From contig JBDOIF010000008.1 of NCBI GenBank assembly GCA_041082215.1, forward strand, positions 6,036-70,035: DNA of 64,000 nt, read 5' to 3'. The position numbers were made by a program, and so were the translations under genes. Origin of the DNA: Anaerolineae bacterium. Its GTDB lineage: Bacteria; Chloroflexota; Anaerolineae; B4-G1; DUEL01. Shown piece after piece: positions 2,143 through 47,518 of this stretch (the first letter of the stretch is position 1; each line of letters opens with the position of its first letter). A model generated the notes under the pieces. It was given only the letters and a program-made list of their open reading frames with translations, made no database searches and was not told the DNA's origin.

Positions 2143-4724
2143 GCAGGCTGAGAGATCGGAGGTGGTTGCTCCTCACATTGGGGGTCCCGGCGGCCTACGG
2201 GCTGGCCGTCGGCCTGATGACCTTCCCGGCACCGCTCCATCTTACCGACCGGCTGATCGGCAACAACATTGATAACTGGATCTTCTACTGGAACAACTGG
2301 TGGCTGGGGCAGGCCCTCAGGGAGGGGCATAACTGGTTCTTCACCCCTTACCTGTTCCACCCTCAGGGTGCCTCACTCCTGGCCCATTCCATCTCCTTCC
2401 TGAATTCCCTCATCGCCCTGGCCCTCAAGCCAGCCGTAGGACCGGTGGCTGCTTACAATCTCAGTTTCCTTCTCGGCCTGTGGGTGGGCGGCATAGGGAT
2501 GTTCTGCCTGATGTACGAACTGACCCGCTCCCCCGCTGGATCTTTCCTTTCCGGCCTGGTGTTCACCTTTGCCCCCTACCACCTGACCCAGGTCCTGGCC
2601 CAGCTCCACCTGGGCTCCATCCAGTGGTGGCCCTTCTTTGCCCTCTTCCTCCACCGGGCCATGCGGCGAAGGAGCTGGAACGACGGAGCGTTCGCCGGAC
2701 TCTTCGCCGGGCTGACCCTCTGGTCTGGCCTGCAACTGGCCCTGCTGCTCCTTCTGTGGACGCCGTTGCGGCTGGGGTGGTATGCTCTCTTTGAATTCCG
2801 CCCCGATGGAGGGAAGAAAGGGTGGCTGAGGCTGGGCGGCGTCATTGGGGTCTGCATCATAGCAGCGGTTCTGGTCGGCCTTCCTCTGCTTCTGCCGCTG
2901 CTCAGGGGCTGGACGGAGATCACCGAAGCCACCCTCGCCTTCGACGAAAGCAGCACCAACCAGACCGACCTGCTGGCCTACCTGGTTCCGCCCACCTACC
3001 ATCCGCTTGTCGGCGCTCAGGTGAACGCCGTCTACGAGCTATTCGTTGCTAACCGCGCTATAATGCCCTACCTGGGCTATACCACGCTGGGGCTGGCGGC
3101 TATCGGCCTGATAGCACGATATTCGACCCTTAGGACGCGTGAGTCTCCTTCGCGTCCTGACGATAGGATATGGCGGCGGAGCGAACCCCTCTTCTGGGCC
3201 GCCACGGGTGTTATATGGCTTCTCCTCGCCGCCGGCTCCGTTCTCCGCGTCGGGGGCCGGCTGTATCCGGCGATCCCCTTGCCCTACCGGGTCATAGATG
3301 GGATCTTCCCCCTGTCCGCCATCCGAAACCCGGATCGGTTCAATCTGCTCGTCGTCTTCTCCTTTGCCGCTCTCCCCGGCCTGGGCGCGGCCTGGCTTGG
3401 CCGGCGCCGCCGCTGGATGCTCCCGCTGCTCCTGCTGCTGGTGATGCTGGAATACGTGCCGGTCCCCCTCCCCATGTGGGATCTGCCCGCGGTCTCTCCC
3501 TTCATCGCCCGTATGGCAGGCGATCCATCCTCCTATGCCGTGCTCGATTACCCGATGGACTACAGCCTGTCCAAGCTGTGGCTCTACGAACAGACCCTGC
3601 ACGGGAAACCGGTGATCCAGGGGCACGTCTCCCGCTACACCACGGAGACTTACGGCTTCATCATTTCCCACCCACTGCTGGCAATCCTGTACCGGGATGC
3701 GGAGAAGCCCCCCCGACTCCCTGCCATCCCAACCCCTTCCGAACCCTTTGAGCCAGCCCTGGGGCCCGCCCTCCGCTCGCTGGAGGCGGAGGGGGTGCGG
3801 TATATCCTTGTGCATGAGCCGTGGATGGACGACGATCACCGGACCCGCTTCCATCGCGTGGTCCCGCTTGTGCCCACTTATAAAGACGAACTGCTCTCCG
3901 TCTACGACCTCCGACATCCTCTCCCCCTTCTTTACGATGATTTCCCGACCCCTCTGAGCACCACGGCTGCTCTGGCTCGCCTCGAGGTGAAGCCGGAGAC
4001 AGAGGGGGGATGGCGTGTGCAGGTGGTGGCGCTTGCCCTGGCCGCCGATCCGCCGTCACTTTCTTGCCGCGTTGCTCTGGAGGGAGAAGGGAGGGCCGTG
4101 GAGGAGAGGACGGTCGAGCTTTTCGGTCCGGCGGCCCCGTCCCTGGTGGAAGGAGACCTCTGGCTGGCGGAGGCGACCTTTTCCTCGCCTCCTGACCTCC
4201 CGGCGGGGGCCTACCGGTGGGTTCTGGAGTGTGCAAGTGGAGGCCGGTACGTCTCCCCCGACAGTCTGATGGTGAGCGAAGATGGCAGCAGGCAGCTCCT
4301 CCGCCGCCGGCTGGACCTGCGGTACGGGGGATTGATCCGCCTGGGGGGATATCGCTGGTGGGTGGAGGGAGCCGATCTGCACCTGGAGCTGGAGTGGGAG
4401 GCGCTGGCCGATCTGGATACGGACTACAAGGTCTTCGTCCATCTTCTGGATCGCACCGGGGAGCTGCTCTGTCAGCACGACGCGATGCCCTGCGATTGGG
4501 GATGCCCGACCGCAGGGTGGCAGGCAGGGCAGATCATACAGGACGAGGCGGTCCTATCCCTCTGGGGTCTCCCGCCGGGCAGGTACCGGCTGGCCGTAGG
4601 GCTGTACGATGCGGCAACGGGGGAGCGGCTGGATGTCCGCGAAGGGGAGGGAGCCGAGATCCCGAACGGCTACCCGTTCCTGCCGGAGCCCTTTACCATT
4701 CGGTCGCTTGCCGGTGAACCGTGA
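2139..4724 (+). CDS. large polytopic membrane protein, GT-C-fold glycosyltransferase-like
   Basis: 861-aa ORF whose ATGA overlaps the previous stop. About 12 predicted TM helices in the first ~450 aa. C-terminal domain (YKVFVHLLDRTGELLCQHD...YRLAVGLYDAATGERL) is shared with the upstream gene. Confidence 0.5.
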   Translation: MSRLRDRRWLLLTLGVPAAYGLAVGLMTFPAPLHLTDRLIGNNIDNWIFYWNNWWLGQALREGHNWFFTPYLFHPQGASLLAHSISFLNSLIALALKPAVGPVAAYNLSFLLGLWVGGIGMFCLMYELTRSPAGSFLSGLVFTFAPYHLTQVLAQLHLGSIQWWPFFALFLHRAMRRRSWNDGAFAGLFAGLTLWSGLQLALLLLLWTPLRLGWYALFEFRPDGGKKGWLRLGGVIGVCIIAAVLVGLPLLLPLLRGWTEITEATLAFDESSTNQTDLLAYLVPPTYHPLVGAQVNAVYELFVANRAIMPYLGYTTLGLAAIGLIARYSTLRTRESPSRPDDRIWRRSEPLFWAATGVIWLLLAAGSVLRVGGRLYPAIPLPYRVIDGIFPLSAIRNPDRFNLLVVFSFAALPGLGAAWLGRRRRWMLPLLLLLVMLEYVPVPLPMWDLPAVSPFIARMAGDPSSYAVLDYPMDYSLSKLWLYEQTLHGKPVIQGHVSRYTTETYGFIISHPLLAILYRDAEKPPRLPAIPTPSEPFEPALGPALRSLEAEGVRYILVHEPWMDDDHRTRFHRVVPLVPTYKDELLSVYDLRHPLPLLYDDFPTPLSTTAALARLEVKPETEGGWRVQVVALALAADPPSLSCRVALEGEGRAVEERTVELFGPAAPSLVEGDLWLAEATFSSPPDLPAGAYRWVLECASGGRYVSPDSLMVSEDGSRQLLRRRLDLRYGGLIRLGGYRWWVEGADLHLELEWEALADLDTDYKVFVHLLDRTGELLCQHDAMPCDWGCPTAGWQAGQIIQDEAVLSLWGLPPGRYRLAVGLYDAATGERLDVREGEGAEIPNGYPFLPEPFTIRSLAGEP

Positions 4725-7076: not shown

Positions 7077-7090
7077 TTGGGCCAGGCCAT

Positions 7091-7109
7091 CCCCAGGCTA
7101 AAATACACC
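7091..7109 (+). repeat. solo relic of the right end of the ~190-bp palindromic element
   Basis: CCCCAGGCTAAAATACACC versus the element end CCCCCAGGCTGAAATACACC. Lies 12 nt upstream of a -35 box. Confidence 0.35.
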
Positions 7110-7121
7110 CCGTACATATTT

Positions 7122-7150
7122 TTGCCCGTCTTCCCAACTGATGGTATAAT
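7122..7150 (+). promoter_or_regulatory. sigma70-like promoter TTGCCC-17-TATAAT
   Basis: Hexamers and 17-nt spacer read directly. Upstream of the LysM/M23 gene. Confidence 0.45.
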
Positions 7151-7330: not shown

Positions 7331-8497
7331 ATGTTCGAAAATCAATCGTGGGAGCGGGCAGGGACCATCCGCCTGGATGGCATGTCTCGTGTGTTTTCCC
7401 GTCTCTTTGTACGGGCCAGCACTTTCTTCTGGCGCGCTGGCGTGGACTGGCGGACCCGGCGGCCGGTGTTGACGCGGATGACCGCCCATTTCAGCGTACT
7501 GCTGCTGGCCCTGCTGGGGCTGGTTCTGGGCCGCATCCAGCCCCCCACTCAGGCCCTTGGCGGCCCTTCCTACGACGTTCCCGCCCTCTCCTCCCCCCCG
7601 CTTACAGCCGAGGACCAGGGCCGGCCGTGGCGGCCTGCGCCGCAGTTGGTGCTGAACCGGCTGGCGCTCCCCCAAACCCTCATCCCTGAACGGCCCCGCA
7701 GCACGGTGATCACCTACACTGTACAGCCGGGGGATACCATCTACGGCATCGCCCAGAAATTCGGCCTCACTCCCGACACCATCTACTGGGCCAACTCCGA
7801 CATCCTCCACGATAACCCCCATCTCCTCTGGCCGGATATGGTGCTCAACATCCTGCCTGTAAACGGGGTGTACCATACCGTCTCCGCAGGAGAGACGGTC
7901 GCCTCCATCGCCGACAAGTACGACGTTGACCCCTCGGCGCTCTACAACGAATGGAACAACCTGAAGGAAGGGGAACCCCTCCAGGCTGGGATGCAACTGG
8001 TCGTCCCCGGTGGGACGCGGGAGTACGTGCCCTGGCAACTGCCACGGTACAGCGACCTCCACGGCGCAGCGGCGGCAGGATCCGGGGTCTGTGCCCTGCC
8101 GTCGGTGGGCCTCACCGGCCGGGGCTGGTTTGCCTGGCCCACCGATAGCCGGCGGATCTCCGGCTGGACCTTCCACGATCCGCGCAACCCACCCCACGGC
8201 GGGATAGACATCGGCCTCCGCACCGGCGATCCGATCTACTCCGCCGACAACGGGGTGGTGGCCTACGCCGGCTGGAACGATTGGGGATATGGCTACCTGA
8301 TCGTCCTCGACCACGGCAACGGCTACCAGACCTACTACGCCCACCTGAGCGCCATCTGGGTCGTGTGTGGCCAATCGGTCCAATGGGGCACGCCAATCGG
8401 CGCTGGCGGTTCAACGGGACGCTCCAGCGGTCCCCATCTCCACTTCGAGATCCGTTACCAGGGAATACCGCAGGACCCCCTTTATTACCTGCCCTAG
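7331..8497 (+). CDS. LysM-domain M23 family metallopeptidase
   Basis: Two LysM repeats (YTVQPGDTIYGIAQKFG..., HTVSAGETVASIADKYD...). M23 motifs HGGIDI and GPHLHFE. The true start may be an internal Met (TM segment at MTAHFSVLLLALLGL). Confidence 0.85.
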   Translation: MFENQSWERAGTIRLDGMSRVFSRLFVRASTFFWRAGVDWRTRRPVLTRMTAHFSVLLLALLGLVLGRIQPPTQALGGPSYDVPALSSPPLTAEDQGRPWRPAPQLVLNRLALPQTLIPERPRSTVITYTVQPGDTIYGIAQKFGLTPDTIYWANSDILHDNPHLLWPDMVLNILPVNGVYHTVSAGETVASIADKYDVDPSALYNEWNNLKEGEPLQAGMQLVVPGGTREYVPWQLPRYSDLHGAAAAGSGVCALPSVGLTGRGWFAWPTDSRRISGWTFHDPRNPPHGGIDIGLRTGDPIYSADNGVVAYAGWNDWGYGYLIVLDHGNGYQTYYAHLSAIWVVCGQSVQWGTPIGAGGSTGRSSGPHLHFEIRYQGIPQDPLYYLP

Positions 8498-8554: not shown

Positions 8555-11500
8555 ATGGAAAGAATATGGATTGTGGACCCGGACCCGGCCTTCTGTCAGG
8601 AATTAAAGAGAACCCTGCGTGAGGCCGGACTTCAAGTTTTCGGGATGACGCAGGTCCCCTCCCCCACCCCCTGGGAGAAAAACGATACTCTGCTTGTTGA
8701 CATAACCATACTGCCGGTGCCCACGCCACCGGAGATCGTCATCGCCCTTGTCCCCCCCGACGACAGGGCCGATCCAGCCCAGGCCCTCCGGTCCGGCGCT
8801 CATCTCTGCATTCCCAAGCTCCCCCCCTGGTTAGACTCGCTCCCCTCCCTCCTGCACAACCTCCACGCCCACAGGGAACGGGAGCAGGACCAGGCAGACT
8901 ATGACCAGGTGCTGACCCTCATGGGCGAAGGGATCGCCTTCGAGGATGCCGAGGGGCGCTTTACCTTCATCAGCCCTCATCTGGCCCGGATGCTGGGATA
9001 TGCGGAAGAAGAGCTGCTGGGCCGCCATTATACTGAGCTGATCCACCCCCACGACCGGGAACGGGCGCAGGCCGAGACGGCCAAGCGTCCCCACGGGATC
9101 GCCAGCCAGTACGAGCTGCGGCTTCTGCGGAAAGACGGCTCAGCTCTCCCGGTCTGGGTTGTAGCAACCCCCCGGATCGAAGGGGAAGTGTTCACCGGCG
9201 TAACGGTCGTTTTCCGCGATCTATCTCTTGAGAAAGAGAAAGTCAGAGCCCGCCTCCAGGCCCTCCAGCAGGTCATCTCCAGCGTCGGGGCAGAGTGGGA
9301 GCTTGTGGAGGTTTTCCGCAGGGCCCGAAACGTGCTGCGGGATATCTTCGAGGGCGTCCTGGAGGTGCTTTTCATGATCGCCGATGAGGGGGAGACGGGC
9401 ATCCTCCGTCCCATAGGCCTCCAGGAAGAATCCCCCCTGCTCGATCTGCTCGAGCAGCTCCTGGGAATTCCTGTGGCCGAAATGCGCTTCCCCCTTTCCA
9501 ACCTGCCCGTTGAGTGGCGAGAACGGATCCCCAAAGGACGTCCCTGCATCAGCCTCGACATTTCGGAACTGGGACGGATGCTCATCGGCCAGAAGGCAAC
9601 CGACACGGGCCTCCGCCTTGTCCAGGTCCAGAGTGTGGTGGCCCTGCCCCTGCGCACGGGCGGCCTCCTTCGGGGGTTGATCGTCGTGGCGATAGGCCGC
9701 CCCTACTTCCAGCAGGAGGAGCTGGACCTGGCGATGACGGTCGCTAACCTGGTGGCAGCAGCAATGGAGAGCCACGCCCTCCTGGAACAGGCCCGGCGGC
9801 GGATGGAGGACCTGAAGCGGCTGTTCGAACTCTCCCAGGCTATCGCCGCCTCCAGCGACCCCACGGAGCTGGCGACTATCGCCGCCCGACAGTTCATTCA
9901 GGCCGCCAATATGGAAGAGGCCAGCATCTACCTCTGGGACCGCGAGAGAGATGCGCTGCGCCTTGTTGTGGACCTGTACTACGACTACGAGGCGAACGTT
10001 TTTCAACACCGTCATGCTCCAGAGGTCTGCTCCCTCCAGGACGCCCCTTTCATCCGCCAGGTGCTGGAAACACGGCAGCCTCTACAGCTCCTCGCCGACG
10101 ATCCGGGCCTGGACTCTGAAACACCGGATAGCTTCCAGAGGGCCAGGGCCCGGATGAACGTCGTCCTCCCCCTGGTCCAGAAGGGGAGGAGCATCGGCAT
10201 CGTCGAGCTCAGAGACTCGGCCCGCAGGGAGCGGTTGGGGCGCGAACTGTTGAACCTGGGGATGACGCTGGCCGGGCAGGTGGCCGAAGCGCTGGAGAGC
10301 GCCCGCCTCTTCCACGAAACCCGGCAACGGGCCATCCAGTTGCAGACCGCAGCCGAGATCGCCCGACACGCCACCACCATCCTCGACGTCGAAACCCTCC
10401 TGACTCAGAGCGTAGAGCTGATCTGCGAGCGGTTCGACCTCTACTATGTCGGCATTTTCCTGCTGGACCCGACCGGGCAGTGGGCCGTCCTGCGGGCCGG
10501 TTCGGGGGAGGCGGGACGGAAGATGCTGGAGGCGGGCCACCGGCTCGAAGTGGGCGGCCCTTCTATGATCGGCTCCTGTGTTGCCCGCGGGGAGGCCCGC
10601 ATCGCCCTCGATGTGGGGAAAGAGGCGGTCCGTTTCGATAACCCCCTGCTCCCTGAGACCCATTCGGAGATGGCCCTCCCGCTGATCAGCCGGGGGCGCG
10701 TCATCGGCGCGATGACGATCCAGTCAACCCAGCCTGCCGCGTTCTCCGAAGAAGACATCACCATTCTCCAGACCATGGCCGACCAACTGGCCAACGCCAT
10801 CGAAAACGCCCGCCTTCATGAAGAGCAACAGCGTCGCCTCACCGAGCTGGCCGCTCTGTACGAGGTCGGCCGGGCCATCACCGCCATCCTCGACCCCCAG
10901 GCCCTCATCGAGGCCGTCTACGAACAGGTCAACCGCTTCATTGACGCCCCCATCTTCTACATCGCCCTGTGGGAACAGATAACCGACGCCATCCGTATCC
11001 CGGTCATTATCGAACACGGCCGGAGACTCTACGACCAGCAGGTGGGCTGGGAAGGGCTGGTGGGTTGGGTTATGCGCAGTAACCGGCCGCTCCTGGTGAA
11101 AAACCTGCAGGATGCAGGCGAACTCCCCCCCGAGGTCACGCCGCAGGTCATCGGCCACACATATCCCCTGTCCCTCGCCCTCGTCCCGCTAACCATCGGC
11201 GAGCGGGTGGTCGGTGTCCTTTCAGCCCAGAGCGAACAGGTCGGCGCCTACACCGAACAGGACCTCGATTTCCTCACCGCTGTCGCCAGTCAGGTGGCGG
11301 TCGCCGTGGAGAACGCCCGCCTCTATGAACAGGAGCGCCGTCGGGCCACCCAGGCCTCCCTCCTGAACACCGTAGCCCAGCAGGCCAACGCCATCCTCTC
11401 CGCCGAACGGCTCCTGCCCGCCGTCGCCGAGGCGATCCGTGAGCACTTCGGATACGATAGCGTCATCCTGATGCTGATAGACCCCAGGGAACGGGTCCTG

Positions 11501-14500
11501 AAGCTCGCCGGCAAGGCCGGAATGGGGACCGACGGCCTCCCCGAAGGCTTCCGTCAGTCGCTTGACCAGGGGATCATCGGCTGGGTCGCCCGCCACGGAG
11601 AGACCCTCCTGGTCAACGACACCCGGCAGGACGAGCGGTACTATGCCCCGATCCCCGACCTCTACCTGGCCGGCTCCGAACTGGCCGTCCCGCTCAAGAT
11701 CGGCGGAGAGACGGTCGGCGTGCTGGACCTGCAGTGCGTGGCAAGCTACGGGTTCGATGAGACGGACGTCGCCACGGCCCAGACGCTGGCCGAGCAGGTG
11801 GCCGTCGCGCTCCACAATGCCCGGCTTTACGAAGAGGCACGCCGCAGAGCAGAGGAGCTGGCCGCCCTTAACGCTGTGGCCGCCCGGCTGGGGCAGTCCC
11901 TGGAGCTGGAAGAGGTGCTGAACGGAGCGATGGAGGAAGTGACCCGCGTGCTGGGAGTCGAGGCCTCCGCCGTCAGCCTGGTAGATGAGGAAACGAATGA
12001 GGTGGTCCTGAAAGCCCAATACGGCCTCCGATACTCCCACCTGGGTATGCGGATCCCCCTGGGAGAGGGCCTCTCCGGCATAGTGATCCGAACCGGCGAA
12101 CCCCTGATCACCGGCGATGTCAGCCAGGACCCCCGGCTGGCGGTCCGGGAGTTTGCCCGGGAGAAGGTGCAGGCGATGGTCATGGTGCCCATCCACTCCC
12201 GTGGCAAGGTCGTGGGCATCCTCAGCGCTATGAGCCATTTCCCCCACGAATTCGACGAACGGGAGATCACTCTGCTGAAGGGTATCGCCAACCAGGTGGG
12301 GGCGGCTGTGGAGAACGCCCGCCTCTTCGAGGCCGAGCGCTCTCAGCGGCAGATGGCGGAAACACTCCGCAGCGTCGCCACCGTCCTCACCTCCACCCTG
12401 GAGCTGGGACAGGTCCTGGACTGGCTGCTGGACCATCTGGAACGGCTGGTAGCCCACGACCGGGCAAAGGTGATGCTGCTCCACGACGGACGGCTGCGGG
12501 TGATGGCTACCCACGGCTACGACCAGCACCCTGATGGCAGCCCTATGCTGGGCCGCCTGATCTCCCTGGCCGAAGCCCCCCTCCTGCGGGAAGTCGTGCA
12601 GGGAAAGAAACCGGTTGTGGTCACGGACCCCTCCACCGACCCCCGCTGGTGGCATAAAGAGGGGCTCTGGCGCTCCGAAAGCTGGATCGGAGTGCCGTTG
12701 ATCGTGCGGGATGAGGTGATCGGCGTTCTGACCGTATCACGGAAGGCCCCGCCCCGCTTCACCCCAAAAGAGGCAGCCCTGGTGACCGACATTGCTGTCC
12801 AGGCTGCCGTTGCTATCGAGAACGCCTACCTGTACGAAGAGGCCCGCCGCCAGACCCGCGAGCTGGCCGCTATGTACCGCATCGCCACCACTGTGGGCCG
12901 CTCGCTGGACCTGCCCGCCGTCCTTTCGGAGACGCTGACCCACGTGACGGAACTGATCAACCTGCAGGCCGGGGCGATCTTCCTGCGGGAGCAGGCCGGC
13001 CAATGGATGACCCTGGCAGCCCACCGCAAGCTCCCGGAAGGGGCAGAAAGAAACCTGCATACGGTCTATCTCGGAGAGGGTCCCCTCGGTAAGGCCGCGC
13101 TGCGGACAGAGGTAAGCCAGCTCCCGGTGTGGGAGATCTTCTGCGGCGAGGCGAAGGAAGAGGGGGAAGGGACAACAACAGGGGTGGTGGTACCCCTGCG
13201 GGTGCGGGGGCGGGTGATCGGAGCTATGGCCCTCGGCTCCCCCCACGCGGAGGAGATCCAGCCCGCCACGATCCGCCTGCTGGATACCGTCGCCCGCCAC
13301 CTGGCGGTGGCGATCGAGAACGCCCGGCTCTACGCCGAGATGGAAAACCGTGAGCAGATGGCCCGCGCCCTCTACCAGGTCACCCGTCACCTCACCTCAC
13401 TGGACCCCCATCAGATACCGGAGCGGGTGCTGGTGGAGCTCCGGCACGTGATCGCCTACGATGTGGCCGGCGTGCTGATCCGGGGGGATGCTGGCGCCGA
13501 TCTGATGCTCCACGTCGCCACGCCTTGCAGCCGGGGGGAACTCCAGGAGGCGGAAAACCGGCTGCTGGAGGGGTTCCGGCTTCTGGGCGGCGGGCCGATC
13601 CGACCGGATGAGATCAACCGATCCGTCTGGTCGCAGGTGGAACTCAGCCCTGAAACCTCCGGGGAGCCGGGGTTCCGATCCTATCTCAGCGCACCCCTCG
13701 TGGTGGGCGAGCGGCTGGCCGGCCTCCTCCAGCTCCTGTGTCGCCAGGCCGATGCCTACGACGAACAGGCACAGCGGCTTATCCTCATCGTCGCCAACCA
13801 GGTGGCGACAGCGGTCGAGAACGCCCAGCTCTACCAGGCAGTGCGGGAGCACGCAGCCAACCTGGAGGAGGCGTACAGACAGCTCCAGGAGGTGGATAAG
13901 CTCAAGGACGAGCTGATCCAGAACGTCTCCCACGAGCTGCGTACCCCCCTCACCTTCGTCAAGGGGTATGTGCGGTTGATGAGGGAGGAGGAACTGGGGC
14001 CGCTCACACCAGACCAGCAGAAGGCGCTGGAGGTGATGGACCGCAAGACCGATCACCTGGCCCGCCTGGTCAGCGACATTGTGACGCTGGAAACGGTCAG
14101 CCGGGAGACGCTGGAGATCAGGCCGACCGACCTGGTACAACTGGCACAGATGGCACTGGAGGCCTGCCGCCCGGCTGCTGTCGAGGCCGGGATTGAGCTA
14201 TGCACGGAGATCCCTCCCAGGCTTCCCCCTGTCCTGGCCGATTGGGCCCGCATCAGCGAGGTCTTCGACAACCTCCTGGCCAATGCCATCAAGTTCAGCC
14301 CGGATGGAGGGACGATCACCGTCCGGATGGAGGAGGAGAAAGACGCCGTGCGGGTCGAGATCTCCGACACCGGCATTGGCATCCCCAGAGATAAGCTCGC
14401 CCGCATATTCGACCGGTTTTACCAGGTAGACGGCTCTACCCGTCGGCGGTTCGGCGGTGCCGGCCTGGGACTGGCCATCGTCAAGCGGATCGTCGAATCC

Positions 14501-14581
14501 CACGGCGGGAAGGTGGGGGTGGAGAGCGAACCGGGGAAGGGGAGCACCTTCCACTTCACCCTCCCCAAAGCATCGCTGTAG
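8555..14581 (+). CDS. giant sensor histidine kinase: REC-like, PAS, ~9 GAF domains, HisKA, HATPase_c
   Basis: 2008 aa. The GAF-terminal motif ENARL(Y/F)EE recurs 9 times. H-box SHELRTPL. G-boxes DTGIGI and [10 protein letters not shown]. Confidence 0.9.
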
Positions 14582-14634
14582 GTTGCTCTCTTCTTTGACC
14601 ACGGATGCCATTCCAACCACCGGACAGTCTTGCA

Positions 14635-14812
14635 GATCACGAATCCCACGAATCAGACAAATGGCACAAATGGTGCGAAGCTGGGTAATGACCTGCCCAC
14701 GTAGCGCAGGCCGCCAGGCCTGTTTCGCGCAGGCTAACAGCCTGCGCTACGTAAGAACTGCCCGGAAATATCCGCATTCGTGAAACTCGGCCTGTTCGCG
14801 TCATTCGCGATG
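14635..14812. repeat. palindromic element of 9-bp CGAAT/CAAAT units (short family, copy D1) with internal alternative hairpins
   Basis: The left arm GATCACGAATCCCACGAATCAGACAAATGGCACAAATGG mirrors the right arm ...CATTCGTG...GTTCGCGTCATTCGCGATG. The second copy is at 39589-39706. Confidence 0.6.
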
Positions 14813-16016: not shown

Positions 16017-16790
16017 TCAATCCCGCTGCATCGCCACCCAGCGGCCGCTTTCCCTCCTCACCCAAAGGACCGGCTCCCCGCCGACCAGGGAGGGGCGGAG
16101 CCTTCCCCTCGTATCCACCATCCCTTCGGTCAGGAGCTGCCCATCCACCGCCTGTACACGGGCCACGCCCGCCGCCAGCAGGGTCGGGACGGGCTGGAGG
16201 CCCTCCAGCTCCCGCAGTCGTCCGCGAAGGATGAAGCGGCCGTCCTCGCCGGAGGCGGCCAGCCCCACGGCCGCCAGCGCGCCGACCGCCCCGCTCCCGT
16301 CTCCCCCCAGGCCCCGCAGGATCAGCCCGGCCTGATCGGCCAGGATGTGGGCCTCGGCCAGGGTGACCAGCGTCTCCTTCGCCTTCCGGCCAAAGGCCAT
16401 CACCGATGCCGGCACCTGCCAGGCCAGACAGAGGCCAGGATCGCTGCCGGGGGCGGCCCGCTCCATCACCCACCGGCCCACGAGCCAGGCCATCTCCTCC
16501 AGCTCCGCCGCCCCATCCGCCTCCAGATGGATCACCGCCGCGCTGTTGCGAGCGGTCATCGGCACCCGGGGGTCCTGCAGTAGCTGGTGCCGGGTGACGC
16601 CGAAGAGGGGGAACCGTTCCCCCAGGCGACCGGCGATCTCCCGCGCCAGCCTGCCCGTACCCGGCGATCCGGGCATGTCCGTATCGTCCAACCCGATCCA
16701 GATCACTTGACGAGACCTCGCAGGGATGATATAGTGCTCGTGCACAGAGTGTCTAACGTTTGACGTTTGACGTTTGACGTCAAACGTCAA
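16017..16790 (-). CDS. hypothetical protein with an N-terminal GLDDTD motif (TiaS N-terminal-like? uncertain)
   Basis: Long ORF. The first ~28 codons are encoded by the heptamer palindrome, so the real start is probably GTG 16706 (VIWIGLDDTDMPG...). Confidence 0.45.
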   Translation of the reverse strand: MTFDVKRQTSNVRHSVHEHYIIPARSRQVIWIGLDDTDMPGSPGTGRLAREIAGRLGERFPLFGVTRHQLLQDPRVPMTARNSAAVIHLEADGAAELEEMAWLVGRWVMERAAPGSDPGLCLAWQVPASVMAFGRKAKETLVTLAEAHILADQAGLILRGLGGDGSGAVGALAAVGLAASGEDGRFILRGRLRELEGLQPVPTLLAAGVARVQAVDGQLLTEGMVDTRGRLRPSLVGGEPVLWVRRESGRWVAMQRD

Positions 16791-16804
16791 GCGTCAAACG
16801 TCAG
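16753..16804. repeat. 52-bp near-perfect palindrome made of (GACGTTT)3 / (AAACGTC)3 heptamers
   Basis: Centre is GACGTC at 16776-16781. Only 2 mismatches in 26 pairs. Lies in the divergent intergenic region. Confidence 0.9.
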
Positions 16805-16841
16805 ATTTGAACATCAAGCCGGATGCCGGTGAGAACGTTTT

Positions 16842-20266: not shown

Positions 20267-20295
20267 ATTATAAACTGGAGTCCGCTTTCCTGCAA
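20267..20295 (-). promoter_or_regulatory. sigma70-like promoter TTGCAG-17-TATAAT for tRNA-Leu (and possibly tig-clpP)
   Basis: Read on the minus strand. The -10 is 12 nt upstream of the tRNA 5' end. The -35 is 10 nt from the left end of element copy 1. Confidence 0.5.
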
Positions 20296-20305
20296 GGAGC
20301 AGCGG

Positions 20306-20495
20306 GGCGTATTTCAATTTCGGGGCGAGTGATCCTCTCGCCCGCCGGTGGATCGCGAATCCCACGAATGGCCCGAATACAGCAAATAAGAGGGGTACCT
20401 GCTCCATTCGCGGTATTCGTTTCCATTTGCGTCATTCGTGTTTCCCCAGGTCCGGCCCGGGCCAGGGACATCTCGCCCCCAGGCTGAAATACACC
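20306..20495 (+). repeat. ~190-bp palindromic CGAAT-unit element, copy 1
   Basis: Terminal inverted repeats GGCGTATTTCA.../...TGAAATACACC. 4 GAAT units at 9-bp spacing, an ~18-nt centre, then 4 ATTC units. Confidence 0.9.
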
Positions 20496-20512
20496 TGGAG
20501 CGGCGCGCTGAC

Positions 20513-20540
20513 TTGACGCATCCCCTGCGGATGGTATCAT
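20513..20540 (+). promoter_or_regulatory. candidate promoter TTGACG-16-TATCAT
   Basis: 17 nt downstream of element copy 1. Very close to the downstream start codon, so uncertain. Confidence 0.3.
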
Positions 20541-20554
20541 AGCAGGTGGAGGGA

Positions 20555-21298
20555 ATGATGCAATCGCGGAACTGGACGCCAGTAGCGATCGGGGTGATCC
20601 TGCTTTCGGCAGCCGTCGGACTGGCCCTGCTGGCCCTGGGCAGGGAGCCAGCGCCCACGCCCACCCCCACGCCCTCCCCGACGGCCACCCCCGCGCCGTC
20701 GGCTGTCCCCCTTCCCTCCCCCCTTACCCTCCCATCCCCCACGCCTGGCCCGCTCCTCTACACGGTCCAGGAGGGGGACACACTGGCCCGGATCGCCGCC
20801 GCTTATGGGGTCTCGCTGGAGGAGCTGATCGCCGCCAACGGCCTGAGCGACCCCAACCTGATCCACGTCGGGCAGGTGCTGGTTATCCCCGGGGGCACAG
20901 CCCCCATCTCCGAGGAGCCATCCACACCCACCCCTCTTCCGCCCACCGCTCCGCCCACCCCCATCCTTCCCACATCTACCCCTTCCGGTCCACCGCTGGT
21001 GGAGATCGGCGGGGTGCTGGGAGCGGGGGACCTGGCGGCGGAGGTGGTGCGGGTGCGGAACCGGGGCGGGACAGCCCTGCTGGAGGGATGGACCCTATCC
21101 GACGCAGCCGGCAACCTGTTCACCTTCCCCCGGCTGATCCTCTTTCCGGGGGGAGAAGTGGCCGTGCACTCCGGCCCAGGCTCCTCCACTCCCACGCATC
21201 TCTACTGGGGTCGGGCCGAGGCGGCGTGGGAATCCGGGGAATTGATCGTGCTGCGGGATCGGGAGGGGGCGGTGGTGGATACCTACATCGTGCCGTAG
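20555..21298 (+). CDS. secreted/membrane-anchored LysM + lamin-tail-domain (LTD) protein
   Basis: N-terminal TM, P/T-rich linkers, LysM (YTVQEGDTLARIAAAYGVSLEELIAANG) and a C-terminal LTD-like beta domain (VRVRNRGGTALLEGWTLSD...). ATG 20555 chosen over GTG 20546. Confidence 0.7.
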   Translation: MMQSRNWTPVAIGVILLSAAVGLALLALGREPAPTPTPTPSPTATPAPSAVPLPSPLTLPSPTPGPLLYTVQEGDTLARIAAAYGVSLEELIAANGLSDPNLIHVGQVLVIPGGTAPISEEPSTPTPLPPTAPPTPILPTSTPSGPPLVEIGGVLGAGDLAAEVVRVRNRGGTALLEGWTLSDAAGNLFTFPRLILFPGGEVAVHSGPGSSTPTHLYWGRAEAAWESGELIVLRDREGAVVDTYIVP

Positions 21299-28021: not shown

Positions 28022-28417
28022 TTATTGACCGTTCTCCCGGAGCCAGTGGGCCAGCGCCCGATGAAAAGCGGCAGCGACCTCGTCGGTGCTGTAGCCCAGG
28101 CGACGAGCCTCCTCCAGGGAGCTGAGAAGGATGCTGTGGAGTTTTTCCTCCCGCAGGCGAGCCATCTGCTTCTCATCGGGCATCCCGGCGACAAAGGTGC
28201 CCCGCCCCCGCTGAGTAGTGATCACCCCATCCCGGTCCAGTTCCAGGTAGGCGCGGGCCACTGTATTATAATTTACCCGCAGATCGGTCGCCAACTGACG
28301 GATGGTGGGGAGCTGATCGCCAGGCCGGAGCTGCCCTGCGGCGATCATCGCCCGCACCTGCTCCTCGATCTGAATGTATATGGGAACCTTGCTATCCGGT
28401 TCAATCCGCAGCTTCAT
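28022..28417 (-). CDS. GntR family transcriptional regulator (YtrA-like, short)
   Basis: wHTH LPTIRQLATDLRVNYNTVARAYLELDRDGVI. Alternative start at 28432. Confidence 0.85.
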   Translation of the reverse strand: MKLRIEPDSKVPIYIQIEEQVRAMIAAGQLRPGDQLPTIRQLATDLRVNYNTVARAYLELDRDGVITTQRGRGTFVAGMPDEKQMARLREEKLHSILLSSLEEARRLGYSTDEVAAAFHRALAHWLRENGQ

Positions 28418-28429
28418 AGCCGGTTGAAT

Positions 28430-28467
28430 CATATTGAGCTAATGAAATATTGAACTAACTCAATATG
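28430..28467. promoter_or_regulatory. candidate GntR operator: inverted repeat CATATTGAG-N20-CTCAATATG
   Basis: 9-bp arms at 28430-28438 and 28459-28467, immediately downstream of the -10 box in an AT-rich island. Confidence 0.4.
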
Positions 28468-28496
28468 ATTATATCATACCGGGACGGTTTTGTCAA
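28468..28496 (-). promoter_or_regulatory. consensus sigma70 promoter TTGACA-17-TATAAT for the GntR operon
   Basis: Both hexamers are perfect on the minus strand. The -35 is 17 nt from the edge of element copy 2. Confidence 0.6.
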
Positions 28497-28513
28497 GTCC
28501 CCCAGACTGAAGA

Positions 28514-28702
28514 GGTGTATTTCAGTTTGGGGGCGAGATGTCCCTGGCCCGGGCCGGACCCCGGGGAACACGAATGGCGCGAATGGAAACGAATACCGCG
28601 TATGGAGCAGGTATCCCTCCTGTTCGCCGTATTCGGGCCATTCGTGGGATTCGCGATCCACCGGCGAGCCGGAAGACCACTCGCCCCGAATTGAAATACG
28701 CC
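28514..28702 (-). repeat. ~190-bp palindromic CGAAT-unit element, copy 2 (inverted orientation)
   Basis: Aligns end to end with the reverse complement of copy 1. Confidence 0.9.
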
Positions 28703-28718
28703 CCCCGCCCTCTCGTTT

Positions 28719-28805: not shown

Positions 28806-30125
28806 GTGGCCGAGTATGGGGAGCCGCTGAGCGAGCGAGAGCTGGAGGTCCTTCAGCTCGTCGCCACGGGCGTCACCAACAAGCAGATCGCGCATCGGCT
28901 CGGCATCAGCACCAATACCGTCAAAGTCCATCTGCGCAACATCTTCGCCAAGCTGGGGGCCGAATCCCGCACCGAAGCGACGATGATCGCCATCCAGCAG
29001 GGCTGGGTCGCCGTCCCCCAGGAAGAGGCCTACCCGCTCCCGGCCACCGCGCCCCCTCTCCCCCCCTCCCTCCCTGTCCCCCTCCCCCGGCACCGCCGGG
29101 CAGCGCTTCTCCTCGCCGCCCTGCTGGCAGCCCTGGGTGGCATCCTCTCCTGGCCTCGCTCCTCCCCAGCCGCCAACCCAACCGGGCTTCTCCCCCCTGG
29201 AGGAGGAGGAGAGCAGGGACAGCTCGTCGGCCTTGGGGAGGGAAGCCGCTGGACCGAGCGGGCACAGATGCCTACCCGTCGGGCCTGGCTGGGGCTGGCC
29301 GCCTACGCCGAGCGGCTCTATGCTATCGGCGGAGAAGGACCCGATGGACCGAGCAGCTCGGTGGAGGTCTACGACCCGGAAAGCGATACCTGGAGCCGGG
29401 GGACGCCCAAATCCACCCCGGTCGCCTACGTGGCGGCTGCCCTACTGGGGGACCGGATCTTCGTCCCCGGCGGATGCGCCGACGGCGGAGAAGCCCTGGC
29501 CCTGGCCGAAGCCTACCGACCTGCGACCGACACATGGGAGAAGGTCCCCTCCCTCCCCCATCCCCTCTGCGCCTACGCTCTGGCTGTCCACGAAGGACGC
29601 ATCTACCTCTTCGGCGGCACCGACGGAGACAGCTACCTGGCCAACACGCTTGTCTATATCCCCGAGGAGGGCCGATGGGAGGAACGCTCCCCCATGCCTC
29701 AACCGCGGGCACTGGCGGCAGCAGCCCCGCTGGAGGGAAAAATCTACGTGGTCGGCGGCTACCGGGACGGACGGGAGTTGACGACCTGCACAGCCTATGA
29801 CCCGCAGAGGGATACGTGGGAAAGCTGCACGCCGCTCACGATGGCCCGGGGCGGGCTGGGCCTGGTCCCCCTGGCCGGGCAGCTCTACGCCATCGGCGGC
29901 GGCGGCTGGGGAGGGTACCTCGGCTTCAACGAGCAGTACGTGTCGGCAGAGGCCCGCTGGATAGCGGTGGAAACGCCGCTGACGCGGGAATGGCAGGGAG
30001 CCGGGATTGCCCTGCTCGACCAGGTCATCTATGCCGCCGGGGGCTACAGCGACGACTATCTGAGCCTGACCCTGGCCTTCGAGCCGTTCCCCTTCCGTAT
30101 CTTCATCCCCGCTACCGAGCGATAG
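28806..30125 (+). CDS. membrane-anchored LuxR-family HTH regulator with extracytoplasmic Kelch beta-propeller
   Basis: GTG start. LSERELEVLQLVATGVTNKQIAHRLGISTNTVKVHLRNIF, one TM (AALLLAALLAALGGILSW), then repeated Kelch-like blades (...LYAIGG, ...IFVPGG, ...IYLFGG, ...IYVVGG, ...LYAIGG, ...IYAAGG). Confidence 0.75.
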   Translation: MAEYGEPLSERELEVLQLVATGVTNKQIAHRLGISTNTVKVHLRNIFAKLGAESRTEATMIAIQQGWVAVPQEEAYPLPATAPPLPPSLPVPLPRHRRAALLLAALLAALGGILSWPRSSPAANPTGLLPPGGGGEQGQLVGLGEGSRWTERAQMPTRRAWLGLAAYAERLYAIGGEGPDGPSSSVEVYDPESDTWSRGTPKSTPVAYVAAALLGDRIFVPGGCADGGEALALAEAYRPATDTWEKVPSLPHPLCAYALAVHEGRIYLFGGTDGDSYLANTLVYIPEEGRWEERSPMPQPRALAAAAPLEGKIYVVGGYRDGRELTTCTAYDPQRDTWESCTPLTMARGGLGLVPLAGQLYAIGGGGWGGYLGFNEQYVSAEARWIAVETPLTREWQGAGIALLDQVIYAAGGYSDDYLSLTLAFEPFPFRIFIPATER

Positions 30126-30128
30126 CCG

Positions 30129-30319
30129 GACGTATTTCAATTTCGGGGCGAGTGGTCCTCCCGCCCGCCGGTGGATCGCGAATCTCACGAATGGCCCGAA
30201 TACGGCGAACAGGAGGGATCCCTGCCCCATTCGCGGTATTCGTTCCCATTCGCGCCATTCGTGTTTCCCCGGATTCCGGCCCGGGCCAGGGACATCTCGC
30301 CCCCAGACTGAAATACACC
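30129..30319 (+). repeat. ~190-bp palindromic CGAAT-unit element, copy 3
   Basis: Full-length match to copy 1. Starts 3 nt after the upstream stop codon. Confidence 0.9.
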
Positions 30320-30336
30320 CGCGATAACCCCCACTG

Positions 30337-30365
30337 TTGCCCGGCCCGACAAGGTGCGGTATAAT
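30337..30365 (+). promoter_or_regulatory. sigma70-like promoter TTGCCC-17-TATAAT
   Basis: 17 nt beyond element copy 3. Upstream of the cyclase gene. Confidence 0.5.
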
Positions 30366-30397: not shown

Positions 30398-32176
30398 ATG
30401 CAAGAGAAGGAGTGTTCTGTGAACCATCCCGATCCACAGGCCCCCTTTCCGGGCGGCGAATCGCTCGCCCGCATCCGACAGGAACTGGCCGAGATGGCCC
30501 GCCTCCTGGCACGCCATCAGGCCGGGCCTGCCAGCCCCCTGGCGATGAGCCTCACCCCCTACCTCCAGCACCTCAACGGATCCCTCGACTATCTGGAAAA
30601 AGAGCTGGCCGCCCAGGCCGACGAACGGGCCCAACTGGCCTCCCTGGCCGAAGTGGCCCGCGTGGTCAACTCCTCCCTCGACCTGAGCGAGGTCCTCAAC
30701 CGGGTGATGGACGAGATCATCCGCATCACCGGCGCGGAACGGGCCTTCCTGATGCTGGTGGATCCGGAGACCGGGAGCCTGGAGTTCCGCGCCGCGCGGA
30801 ATATGGACCAGGAGACGATCGCCGACTCCGCCTTCGAGATCAGCCGCAGCGTGGTCTACCGGGTGGCCCAGGAAGGGGAGCCGGTGGTCACCACCGACGC
30901 CCAGCTGGACCCCCGCTTTATGGGCAGGGAGAGCATCGTCAGCTACAACCTCCGCTCCATCCTCTGCGTCCCCCTGCGGGTGCGGGACCGGATCACCGGC
31001 GTCATCTACGCCGACAACCGCATCCGCACCGGCATCTTCGACGACCGGGACCGGGACCTGCTGGCCGCCTTCGCCGACCAGGCCGCCATCGCGATCGAGA
31101 ACGCCCGCCTTTTCGAGAGCGTCACCGCCGCCAAGGCGCTGATGGACAACATCTTCGCCTCCATCGCCAGCGGCGTCATCACAACTGACGAGGAGGATAT
31201 GATCACCCTGGTCAACCAGGCCGCCGAACGCATCCTCGCCGTCTCCGCCGAAGAGACGGCGGGCCGTCCCCTCGCCGAGGCCCTCCCCGCCCTCTTCCCC
31301 CACCTGAAAGGGCTGATAGACCAGATCCGGCGAAAAGATCAACCCCTCCTGCGCTGGGAACTGGAGCCAGAGCTGCCCCAGCGGGGCCGGGTCAACCTCA
31401 GCGTGAGCCTCTCCCCGTTGAAAGACCCCGAACAGCGACGGCTGGGCACCGCCCTGGTGGTGGACGATCTGACCGAACAGCGGCGGCTGGAGGCCCGCGA
31501 ACGGTTCATCCGGGAGACCTTCCAGCGGTATGTCTGCCCCGCCGTCGTGCAGCGGCTGCTGGAAGACCCCGGCAGCCTGAAGCTCGGAGGCCACCGGCAG
31601 GAGGTCACCATCCTCTTCGCCGACATCCGCGGCTTTACCGCCTTCAGCGAATACCTGGACCCCGAGGAGCTGGTGGAGGTGCTCAACCGGTATCTGGCCA
31701 TCGGCGCGGATGCGGTGCTGGCGGAGGAGGGGACCCTGGATAAGTTTATGGGAGACGCGGTGATGGCGATCTTCAACGCCCCCCTCCCCCAATCAGACCA
31801 TACGCTCCGGGCCGTGCGGGCAGCGCTGCGGATGCAGGAGGCGATCCGGTCCTACCACAGGAGCGCCCCGCCCGCCCATCATCTCGCCTACGGCGTGGGG
31901 ATCGCCGTGGGAGAGGCGGTGGTGGGCAACGTCGGCACCGCCCAGCAGTTGAACTATACCGCCATCGGGGCCAGCGTCAACCTGGCCAAGCGGCTCCAGG
32001 AGAACGCCGCCGCCGGCCAGGTCCTGCTCGACCAGGCCGCCTACGAACGGGTCGAAGGATGGGTGCTCGCCCGGCCGCTCCCCCCGATAGAGGCCAAAGG
32101 ATTCACCGCACCGGTGCCGGTCTACGAGCTGTTGGGGCTGCGCGATTCAGCGCCCCCTCAGTCCCCCCAACGCTGA
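30398..32176 (+). CDS. GAF-PAS class III adenylate/guanylate cyclase
   Basis: GAF (ENARLFES end motif), PAS (ITTDEEDMITLVNQAAERIL) and cyclase motifs ILFADIRGFT and GDAVMAIFNAP. Confidence 0.85.
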   Translation: MQEKECSVNHPDPQAPFPGGESLARIRQELAEMARLLARHQAGPASPLAMSLTPYLQHLNGSLDYLEKELAAQADERAQLASLAEVARVVNSSLDLSEVLNRVMDEIIRITGAERAFLMLVDPETGSLEFRAARNMDQETIADSAFEISRSVVYRVAQEGEPVVTTDAQLDPRFMGRESIVSYNLRSILCVPLRVRDRITGVIYADNRIRTGIFDDRDRDLLAAFADQAAIAIENARLFESVTAAKALMDNIFASIASGVITTDEEDMITLVNQAAERILAVSAEETAGRPLAEALPALFPHLKGLIDQIRRKDQPLLRWELEPELPQRGRVNLSVSLSPLKDPEQRRLGTALVVDDLTEQRRLEARERFIRETFQRYVCPAVVQRLLEDPGSLKLGGHRQEVTILFADIRGFTAFSEYLDPEELVEVLNRYLAIGADAVLAEEGTLDKFMGDAVMAIFNAPLPQSDHTLRAVRAALRMQEAIRSYHRSAPPAHHLAYGVGIAVGEAVVGNVGTAQQLNYTAIGASVNLAKRLQENAAAGQVLLDQAAYERVEGWVLARPLPPIEAKGFTAPVPVYELLGLRDSAPPQSPQR

Positions 32177-36359: not shown

Positions 36360-37778
36360 ATGTTCTCTACTTTAGAAGAAGCTCGCCGCTTTGTTGAGAA
36401 GCAAAATGTGCAGATGATTGACCTCAAGTTCACCGATCTCTGGGGCCGATGGCATCACCTCTCTCTCCCCGCTGACCGGCTCACCCCTGCCCTGATGGAA
36501 GACGGAGTGGGGTTCGACGGCTCGGCGCTGGGCCTCAAATCGGTCAAGGCCGGGGATATGGTGCTGATACCCGACCTCTCCACCGGATTTCTCGACCCTT
36601 TCTGGGAGCTCCCCACCCTCAGCTTCATCTGCACCACCCTGGAGGCGGATACGAAAAAGGTCTTCGCCAACGATCCTCGCAACGTCGCCCGGCAGGCCGA
36701 GGCATACCTGCGCCAGACCGGCATCGCCGATGAGAGCCGGTGGGGGCCGGAGTTCGAGTTCTACGTCTTCGACCGGGTGTCCTACGAATACGGGATGAAC
36801 CGCTGCGGCTACGTGATCGAATCGAGAGAGGCGGATTGGGGAGACGGGAACCGGGAGCAGGCCCATGCTGTCCCCCCCCACGGGGGCTACCACGCTATCC
36901 CCCCTGCGGACACCCTCTACAACCTGCGCTCCGAAATGGTCCGTTGCCTCCAGGGGATGGGGGTACCGGTCAAATACCACCACCACGAAGTGGGCGGGCC
37001 GGGGCAGTGCGAGATCGAAACGCCGATGATGGGGCTGGTGGAGGCCGGCGACGCGGCGATGAAAATCCGATACGTTACCAGGATGGTCGCCCGCGCCCAT
37101 GGACTCACGGTCACCTTTATGCCCAAACCGCTCTACGGAGAGGCCGGGAACGGGATGCATTTCCACCAGCACCTTTTCAGGGACGGCCAGAACCTCTTCT
37201 ACGCCCCGCAGGGGTACGGGCTGCTCAGCCAGCTCGCCCTCTCCTATATCGGCGGGCTCCTGAGCCACGGACCGGCCCTCCTGGGGCTGGTCAGCCCCAG
37301 CACCAACTCCTTCCGCCGTCTGGTGCCGGGGTACGAAGCCCCGGTCAACGCTTTCTTCTCCCTCGGCAACCGCAGCGCCGCCGTCCGTATCCCCCGCTAC
37401 GCCACCCGCCCCGACGCGGTGCGGATCGAGTTCCGCCCCCCGGACGGGACCTGCAACGTCTATCTGGCGATGGCGGCGCAATTGATGGCCGGGCTGGATG
37501 GCATCCGACAGGGGATAGACCCAACCAGGGCGGGCTTCGGGCCGGTTGACGCCGATATCTTTTCCTGGACCGAGGAGCAGCGGGCGACGATCCGGCCCCT
37601 GCCGACCTCGCTGGATGCTGCCCTGGATGCTCTTTCCGCCGACCGGGCCTTCCTTCTTACCGGCGAGGTCTTCAGCGACGATTTAATCGAACGCTGGATC
37701 GGCCAGAAGCGGGAAGAGGCGCGCGCCGTGCGGCTGCGGCCCCATCCGTATGAGCTGCGATTGTACTATGATGCCTGA
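36360..37778 (+). CDS. glnA: glutamine synthetase, type I
   Basis: 472 aa colinear with GSI. Starts MFSTLEEARRFVEKQNVQMIDLKFTD. Its stop TGA is the first unit of a TGAC heptamer array. Confidence 0.9.
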   Translation: MFSTLEEARRFVEKQNVQMIDLKFTDLWGRWHHLSLPADRLTPALMEDGVGFDGSALGLKSVKAGDMVLIPDLSTGFLDPFWELPTLSFICTTLEADTKKVFANDPRNVARQAEAYLRQTGIADESRWGPEFEFYVFDRVSYEYGMNRCGYVIESREADWGDGNREQAHAVPPHGGYHAIPPADTLYNLRSEMVRCLQGMGVPVKYHHHEVGGPGQCEIETPMMGLVEAGDAAMKIRYVTRMVARAHGLTVTFMPKPLYGEAGNGMHFHQHLFRDGQNLFYAPQGYGLLSQLALSYIGGLLSHGPALLGLVSPSTNSFRRLVPGYEAPVNAFFSLGNRSAAVRIPRYATRPDAVRIEFRPPDGTCNVYLAMAAQLMAGLDGIRQGIDPTRAGFGPVDADIFSWTEEQRATIRPLPTSLDAALDALSADRAFLLTGEVFSDDLIERWIGQKREEARAVRLRPHPYELRLYYDA

Positions 37779-37803
37779 CGCTTGACGTATGACGTATGAC
37801 ACA
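37776..37803 (+). repeat. heptamer tandem array TGACGCT TGACGTA TGACGTA TGACACA
   Basis: Read directly. TGA falls in all three frames. Confidence 0.9.
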
Positions 37804-39570: not shown

Positions 39571-39588
39571 GGGGAGCGGGCCGACATA

Positions 39589-39706
39589 GATCACGAATCC
39601 CACAAATCAGGCAAATGACACGAATTGCGCGAAACCGGCTCGAACAGGGCCAGTATTGGCCCGGAAACATTCGCGAGATTCGGCCCATTCGCGTCATTTG
39701 CGATCA
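39589..39706. repeat. palindromic CGAAT/CAAAT-unit element, short family copy D2
   Basis: GATCACGAATCCCACAAATCAGGCAAATGACACGAAT...ATTCGCGTCATTTGCGATC. Its first 35 nt nearly match D1. Confidence 0.6.
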
Positions 39707-42097: not shown

Positions 42098-42114
42098 CCG
42101 GCGGCTGGCGGCAA

Positions 42115-42170
42115 ATGACGGATGACGGATGACGGATGACGAATGACGAATGACGAATGACGAATGAGGG
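42115..42170 (+). repeat. heptamer tandem array (ATGACGG)x3 (ATGACGA)x4 ATGAGGG
   Basis: Read directly. 8 units between ccsA and the radical SAM gene. Confidence 0.95.
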
Positions 42171-47092: not shown

Positions 47093-47197
47093 CGCCGCAG
47101 GCTGAAAGCCCGTGCTGCATTCTGGCCTTCCGGGCCTCGGACAAGAGTTCGGATAGGGTGGGAGAGCGACCCTCACCCCTCCCCCTATCCCTTCCCT

Positions 47198-47356: not shown

Positions 47357-47372
47357 TACTTCAGGGCCTCCC

Positions 47373-47505: not shown

Positions 47506-47518
47506 CCTGAGGACAAAA

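Follow-up and report, generated by a model that had tools for sequence, protein, structure and literature searches.

Copies of a palindromic repeat in the window

The window, by which we mean the whole 64-kb stretch of DNA analysed here, contains six copies of a palindromic repeat of about 190 bp. Five of them are full length (~192 bp) and one lacks its left end; a relic is present in addition. The set was obtained by repeat search, MAFFT alignment and an nhmmer profile, and the coordinates agree within 1 nt with those at which the original prediction had placed six copies. Pairwise identity among the copies is 87–94%, and their nhmmer E-values (1e-58 to 1e-68) are far beyond chance.

Copy 1 (20305–20496, plus strand, 192 bp) begins with the left repeat GGGCGTATTTCAATTTCGGGGCGAG and ends in ...CTCGCCCCCAGGCTGAAATACACCT. 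It is located between the tRNA-Leu promoter and the promoter of a LysM/LTD gene (20546–21298), as had been described before. Copy 2 (28513–28703, minus strand) lies between the divergent promoters of a GntR gene (28022–28432, minus strand) and a LuxR-Kelch gene (28806–30125). Copy 3 (30128–30320, plus strand) starts 3 nt past the stop codon of the gene upstream of it and is followed by a GAF-PAS-cyclase gene (30398–32176). Copy 4 (47198–47357, plus strand), upstream of tRNA-Phe (47432–47507), lacks the left repeat and ~30 nt and should thus be immobile. Copy 5 (56977–57168, minus strand) is found within an operon, between a 4Fe-4S gene (56107–56994) and a CCG/HdrB-like gene (57186–58079). Copy 6 (63073–63264, plus strand) starts 11 nt past an upstream stop codon and precedes a gene for a Bmp/PnrA-type lipoprotein (from ~63433). 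The relic, which had been assigned to 7091–7109, is a real fragment of the right end, …CCCCAGGCTAAAATACACC; fuzzy search now delimits it to 7086–7109 (plus strand), where it agrees with the terminal repeat at 19 of 24 positions.

The terminal inverted repeat reads GG(C/T)GTATTTCA...GGGGCGAG and is accompanied by GC clamps (GGCCCGGGCC). The termini are 24-nt ends, GGYGTATTTCARYYTSGGGGCGAG on both sides, of which left and right match at 20 of 24 positions. In the core, CGAAT units follow each other at spacings of 9, 9 and (9) on the left arm, and ATTCG units at 9, 10 and 9 on the right arm. In copy 1 the core spans 20352–20438 (plus strand), with CGAAT at 20356, 20365 and 20374 (CAAAT at 20383), a centre of ~18 nt, and ATTCG at 20406, 20415 and 20434 (ATTTG at 20425). 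Terminal repeat, clamps and CGAAT units are all as in the earlier description, which had overlooked two further features, namely 9-bp target-site duplications and a constant distance to promoters.

The element is open in several reading frames solely through its GC content, and a profile built from translations of the six copies in one frame gave no hits against the protein collection. Reading frames which cross the copies should be treated as spurious in annotation.

At 47150–47197, where the left end of copy 4 would be expected, a small hairpin of another kind (GGATAGGGTGGGAG…CTCCCCCTATCC) lies downstream of a gene for a beta-helix protein and could represent a terminator or a further insertion. 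In contigs of the same organism no empty site was seen: four that carry the GntR gene (L171–L174; runs SRR27730030/41/42 and SRR28530377) break off within copy 2 or right at its border, which is expected of short-read contigs at a multi-copy repeat. Three of them differ slightly from the window copy, having GGCCTGGGCC for GGCCCGGGCC and a C-run shorter by one C.

Two other repetitive regions were noted. A reading frame of 2008 residues (8555–14581) contains internal repeats of ~500 bp resembling the GAF domain of the gene at 30398–32176, and the region 50838–60800 holds two paralogous sets of flavin/4Fe-4S (HdrA-like) and neighbouring genes. Both are ordinary gene-family repeats unrelated to the palindromic element.

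Target-site duplications

For the analysis of flanking sequences, the element was taken to extend by one further base beyond GGYGTATTTCA…TGAAATACACC at either end. With this boundary, 9-bp target-site duplications were found at one fixed position in four of the five full copies, each with eight of nine matches. They are located at 20296–20304 (GGAGCAGCG) and 20497–20505 (GGAGCGGCG) for copy 1, at 30119–30127 (GCGATAGCC) and 30321–30329 (GCGATAACC) for copy 3, at 56968–56976 (GTCGGAGAG) and 57169–57177 (GTCGGAGGG) for copy 5, and at 63064–63072 (CCTCAGGAT) and 63265–63273 (CCTCGGGAT) for copy 6. The second 9-mer of copy 5 overlaps the ribosome-binding site of the CCG/HdrB-like gene. By our own arithmetic, a match of eight in nine at a fixed position has a chance of ~1e-4 per site. 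The flanks of copy 2 agreed at none of the nine positions.

Every one of the four pairs differs by one transition. Together with the divergence among copies (6–13%) and the presence of one truncated copy, this indicates old insertions, and judging from these sequence differences the copies are probably no longer moving. We also considered whether copies 2 and 3, which are inverted and flank the LuxR-Kelch gene, form a composite transposon. This was rejected, as the outer flanks mismatch and copy 3 has a duplication of its own.

Terminal repeats shared with ISKra4-type insertion sequences

The terminal-repeat pattern GTATTTCARYYTSGGGGCGAG was scanned across 185,579 species-representative genomes, which returned 17 loci, mostly from MAGs of Anaerolineae or other Chloroflexota. 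The prefix GGYG, which is absent from the pattern, is present in nearly all of them. None of the 17 loci contained the CGAAT core or a member of the repeat family of the window, and a search of viral contigs for the terminal repeat gave no match.

In one of these loci, L008, an apparent response-regulator gene is interrupted by a 1.43-kb insertion sequence (1505–2933), which has the same terminal repeats and is flanked by a 9-bp duplication without mismatches, GATGGCAAT. Its transposase is encoded in two frames. When these were joined by dropping one C from a C-run, the resulting product of 450 residues scored 269.3 bits against the NCBIfam model NF033572, ‘ISKra4 family transposase’ (cut-off 205); the second frame alone scored 204.9 bits. 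The match to the ISLre2 model was weak (108.8 bits, under the cut-off of 200). A protein search retrieved 3,070 relatives at E-values below 1e-30. Thirteen contigs, fetched for four of the relatives, show the same terminal repeats and, where both ends are present, the same size. The full-length relatives (L158–L169), which like L008 come from other assemblies, are 1.43-kb insertion sequences with the terminal repeats of the window element.

Several of the 17 loci contain sister elements of 125–200 bp which have the same repeats, different interiors and duplications of 8–9 bp. A similarity to the 3′ terminus of the transposase gene persists in the right ~45 nt of the window element (…ARARDISPPD* in the element, …GRAYNSPPN* in the insertion sequence), as is expected for a deletion derivative. 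The left repeat of the window element is closer to the right end of the insertion sequence than to the left end. With the extra terminal base included, the ends read GGGCG… on the left and AGGTG… on the right (GGGTG… in copy 3). According to ISfinder, the ISKra4 group has 9-bp direct repeats and ends starting with GGG; the element fits these traits in its 9-bp duplications and its GGG-type ends, the right end being AGG except in copy 3. The window itself contains no transposase, as had been noted before: the best tblastn match in the 64 kb was no better than E=0.3.

The original prediction had counted a MITE among its options, and had named identification as a known MITE, with target-site duplications and a cognate transposase, as the outcome that would count against it. 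This is in essence what we obtained. The MITE option was borne out by 9-bp duplications and by an ISKra4 transposase gene which, in other assemblies, is bounded by the same terminal repeats; what was found is the duplications and the transposase family.

The duplications also bear on a REP-like origin, which had been named together with the MITE option. As a REP/BIME-type repeat, the element would have been spread by a RAYT (IS200-like) enzyme. Such repeats are likewise intergenic, palindromic and present in many copies. The element, however, has ~190 bp as opposed to the 20–40 bp typical of REPs, shares 24-nt terminal repeats with an insertion sequence of the DDE type, and does not form clustered doublets. 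REP/RAYT systems are also not known to make 9-bp target duplications, which contradict this type. We regard such an origin as hardly credible.

Some features of the relatives were noted in addition. The transposase is split in all full-length relatives for which the junction was read (L008 at 1890–1930, L158, L160, L164, L166, L167 and L168). A frame of 116–127 residues is followed by one of ~333–344 residues, which is always in +1, and the junction of ORF1 and ORF2 contains a conserved run of T5–6 C4–6, GGnTTTTTCCCCCTGGATGA. The split suggests programmed recoding, by transcriptional slippage or +1 frameshifting, rather than damage. In L158, a MITE of 151 bp with a perfect duplication, CTGGTCGAC, at 2176–2328 abuts a full-length insertion sequence of the same family at 2338–3764, the flanks of which mismatch each other. 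The sister MITEs of L009 (~2660–2820) and L017 (1272–1420) carry the palindromic cargo GTCATTGCGAG…GCAATCTCC, while those of L010 (2988–~3180) and L020 (5735–~5905) carry another, CTTCGACTTTGCTCAGGATG. We take these cargo motifs to be a widespread source of spurious reading frames in many phyla.

Position of the insertions relative to promoters

In five of the six copies, the flank of the right end contains a predicted promoter of the sigma-70 type, the −35 box of which starts 16–17 nt past …ACACC, i.e. 6–7 nt beyond the duplicated 9-mer. For copy 1 this is TTGACG-16-TATCAT (20513–20540, plus strand) of the LysM/LTD gene, 17 nt past the ...ACACC end. Copy 2 has promoters at 16–17 nt from both ends: TTGACA-17-TATAAT of the GntR gene (28468–28496, minus strand) is 17 nt from the right end, and TTGTGA-16-TATAAT of the LuxR-Kelch gene (28719, plus strand) is 16 nt from the left end. 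The remaining promoters are all on the plus strand: TTGCCC-17-TATAAT of the GAF-PAS-cyclase gene (30337–30365, 17 nt from the right end of copy 3), TTGTGA-17-TAAAAT of tRNA-Phe (47373–47401, 16 nt from that of copy 4) and TTGACT-17-CATAAT of the lipoprotein gene (63281–63309, 17 nt from that of copy 6). A further promoter, TTGCCC-17-TATAAT (7122–7150, plus strand), is found 12 nt beyond the relic and belongs to a LysM-M23 peptidase gene (7331–8497). The genes downstream of these promoters read away from the element. Among the 12 promoter-like sites of the window with at least 10 of 12 consensus matches, six adjoin an end of the element.

The same relation holds beyond the window. When all right-end junctions examined were taken together, including those of the other MITEs in the MAG loci, a −35 box was found at 12–17 nt in 12 of 21, as compared with 0.16% of random positions (binomial P ~1e-28). 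Three of the eight full-length relatives (L158–L169) with a readable right flank have a promoter 17 nt from the right end. Copy 5 has no adjoining promoter and is an off-target insertion within an operon. Outside the window, the exceptions are the insertion sequence of L008, which lies inside a gene, and the element of L012, which was inserted in the opposite orientation. As copy 5 and L008 are located away from promoters, promoter targeting is a preference and not a rule.

We conclude that the palindromic repeat is very probably a MITE of the ISKra4 type, a new family of an ordinary kind, with the promoter-directed insertion known for this group; the terminal repeats, the duplications and the promoter distances all point to this reading.

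The hairpin of the element

Each element folds into one long hairpin; the folding energy is −91 kcal/mol on one strand (z-score −4.9) and −99 kcal/mol on the other (z-score −5.9). A structured non-coding RNA had been among the options of the original prediction; for the upstream gene, the hairpin might also act as terminator or stabiliser. Its high stability on both strands and the start of copies 3 and 6 immediately past stop codons (by 3 and 11 nt) would be in line with such a role. However, an Rfam search returned no match at the gathering score beyond the two tRNAs of the window, hits at E-values up to 1 being at chance level. Across the five full copies, a compensatory change was found in only one of 72 predicted pairs, and roughly 20 of the pairs are disrupted in one copy or more. 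The stem lacks a following U-tract, the orientation of the element tracks the downstream promoter and not the upstream gene, and the 9-bp duplications would be left unexplained. A function as RNA or terminator is thus very improbable, and the structured-RNA option was not supported. Judged from the comparison of copies, the hairpin is inherited from the putative palindromic transposon and is not kept by selection.

The CGAAT core and the ‘B’ elements

That no annotated feature explains these repeats, as had been stated originally, holds for the CGAAT core only; the element as a whole is accounted for as a MITE. The units had also been called helical-phase, which does not agree with their spacing of 9 bp, since B-DNA has ~10.5 bp per turn. 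The left CGAAT array is nearly invariant among copies (one variable column in 33). Permutation tests on invariant runs gave marginal P-values of ~0.03–0.04, and the invariance may hint at constraint.

We searched for the core outside the element. CGAAT is not over-represented in the window outside the repeats, CGAAT arrays were not found in ~200 kb of other loci, and they are absent from the autonomous insertion sequences and the sister MITEs. The core should thus be dispensable for transposition. Four phased CGAAT units were found at 120 or more loci in viral contigs; these have no context in common with the MITE, several are giant-virus MAG contigs with tandem matches, and we consider them uninformative. 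The invariant 20-mer GGGCCAGGGACATCTCGCCC, used in a scan of metagenomes, gave 17 loci, none of which contains the element; these were rejected as chance matches.

Within the window, two sites resemble the core. One, at 39586–39705 (plus strand, GATCACGAAT...ATTTGCGATC), aligns to positions 46–138 of the MITE model (E=1.7e-7) and starts 16 nt past a stop codon. The other, at 14634–14812 (plus strand), has arms which are 84% identical to those of the first over 51 nt and a larger, different centre; it starts 53 nt past a stop codon. Both, which we refer to as ‘B’ elements, have the core arms of the MITE, their own ends (GATCACGAAT…ATTYGCGATS), different centres and no ISKra4 terminal repeats.

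These sequence relations suggest that the CGAAT palindrome is probably captured cargo which stems from a second family of palindromic repeats in the same genome. In a specific form of this proposal, the core would be an independent small palindromic ‘B’ repeat which entered an ISKra4-type MITE, by capture or by insertion, before the MITE was amplified. This is compatible with the MITE reading and we favour it slightly. The two B elements have the arms of MITE positions 46–138 and ends of their own where the ISKra4 repeats are missing, the autonomous insertion sequences and sister MITEs are free of CGAAT arrays, and palindromic cargo is also found in other MITEs of the superfamily. Nevertheless, the proposal rests on two B copies, and neither these nor the core inside the MITE are surrounded by a duplication or another sign of mobility. 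The reverse direction, B elements as MITE remnants without ends, is possible, though no trace of the GC clamps is seen in the B flanks.

The arrays had also been proposed to form a protein-binding platform, which would make the element a mobile cis-regulatory module placing the sites of a multimeric regulator upstream of promoters. Eight phased units in two inverted arrays, the near invariance of the left one and the presence of the same module, free of terminal repeats, at two other intergenic sites would all suit such a function, as would the position of the element, whose span upstream of promoters reaches from about −52 (relative to where the −35 box starts) to about −245. Palindromes built from heptads in a similar design also occur in the same genome (see below). 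We nevertheless consider this improbable: a binding protein is neither known nor predictable, 9-bp spacing would place successive sites on different faces of the helix, the units of the right arm vary freely, and the statistic for invariance is marginal. Moreover, sister MITEs have unrelated cargo at the same promoter positions, and the downstream genes have no common function. It is equally doubtful that the palindrome functions as an independent protein-binding module, existing by itself in the form of the ‘B’ elements and hitch-hiking on a promoter-seeking MITE. If this were true, the transposon would have spread the docking platform of one regulator to a fixed site upstream of many sigmaA promoters and could have brought unrelated genes under common control.

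Arrays of 7-bp units with the core TGACG/CGTCA were observed in four short intergenic spacers of the window (16757–16806, 37765–37800, 42110–42170 and 50775–50845). The first is a perfect palindrome, (GTTTGAC)3(GTCAAAC)3. The array at 42110–42170 consists of (ATGACGR)x7 directly upstream of a radical-SAM gene, and the one at 50775–50845 of inverted arrays upstream of an HdrA-like gene. Palindromes assembled from short phased units may thus be more widespread in this genome.

Discussion

The evidence for an ISKra4-type MITE suggests the following mechanism. The element would be a non-coding DNA transposon of ~192 bp, moved in trans by a transposase of the ISKra4 group. This enzyme, a prokaryotic Mutator-like DDE transposase (‘p-MULT 4’), would be encoded by a full-length insertion sequence elsewhere in the genome. 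Insertion would generate the 9-bp target duplication and place an end of the IS-right type 16–17 nt upstream of the −35 hexamer, so that the core promoter stays intact. To judge from the literature on the group, the orientation would be set by the difference between the two terminal repeats, and insertion into this ‘safe haven’ would replace everything upstream of about −45.

Promoter-directed insertion is established for the relatives. Guerillot et al. (2014; PMC3942029) found a spacing of 13–17 bp between the insertion site and the downstream sigmaA −35 box for TnGBS, for the ISLre2 family and for 13 ISKra4-group members. The same study reports that the asymmetry of the terminal repeats sets the orientation of insertion and that a transposase motif is associated with promoter specificity; a contact with the RNA polymerase initiation complex was proposed by analogy with Ty3. 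MITEs are unmentioned there, and our literature search found no published description of MITEs from the ISKra4/ISLre2/TnGBS group.

With the ISKra4 group, for example ISKra2, ISKra4, ISKra5 and ISKra6 of Ktedonobacter (Chloroflexi), the element shares the terminal-repeat family, the 9-bp duplication, insertion upstream of promoters and the host phylum Chloroflexota. In contrast to these insertion sequences it has only ~190 bp and no transposase, the gene being replaced by the palindrome with its CGAAT arrays. Its orientation in the window is uniform, the right end facing the promoter, but both orientations are reported for ISKra4-group members whose repeats are near-perfect (PMC3942029). With ISLre2 and TnGBS the element has in common an oriented insertion, in which the right repeat is the one closer to the sigmaA promoter, at 15–17 bp upstream of it. 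These, however, have a different transposase family and occur mainly in Firmicutes, and TnGBS is large and conjugative.

The element also resembles the classical MITEs, being small, non-coding, intergenic and multi-copy, with terminal inverted repeats, target duplications and the ability to form a hairpin, and presumably moved in trans by the transposase of an insertion sequence. Classical bacterial MITEs (Correia/NEMIS, RUP, Nezha, MITEAba12) derive from other families such as IS630, IS5 and IS4. Some of them hold internal tandem repeats, e.g. a MITE of P. gingivalis which is reported to contain a minisatellite. To our knowledge, none of the classical MITEs inserts at a fixed distance from a −35 box. 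Position-specific integration beside the machinery of transcription initiation, as a safe haven, is also seen with Ty3 and with TRE of Dictyostelium. This is a functional analogy only, as both are eukaryotic retrotransposons which target genes of RNA polymerase III and have no homology to the element described here.

The promoter-seeking behaviour of the ISKra4/ISLre2/TnGBS transposases would thus extend to miniature, non-coding derivatives in uncultured Chloroflexota. Given the distance of 16–17 nt between right end and −35 box, the copies flag likely sigmaA promoters in a lineage without transcription data. Seven insertions in 64 kb, each of which would have replaced the DNA upstream of about −45, suggest a sizeable effect of this family on upstream regulatory DNA.
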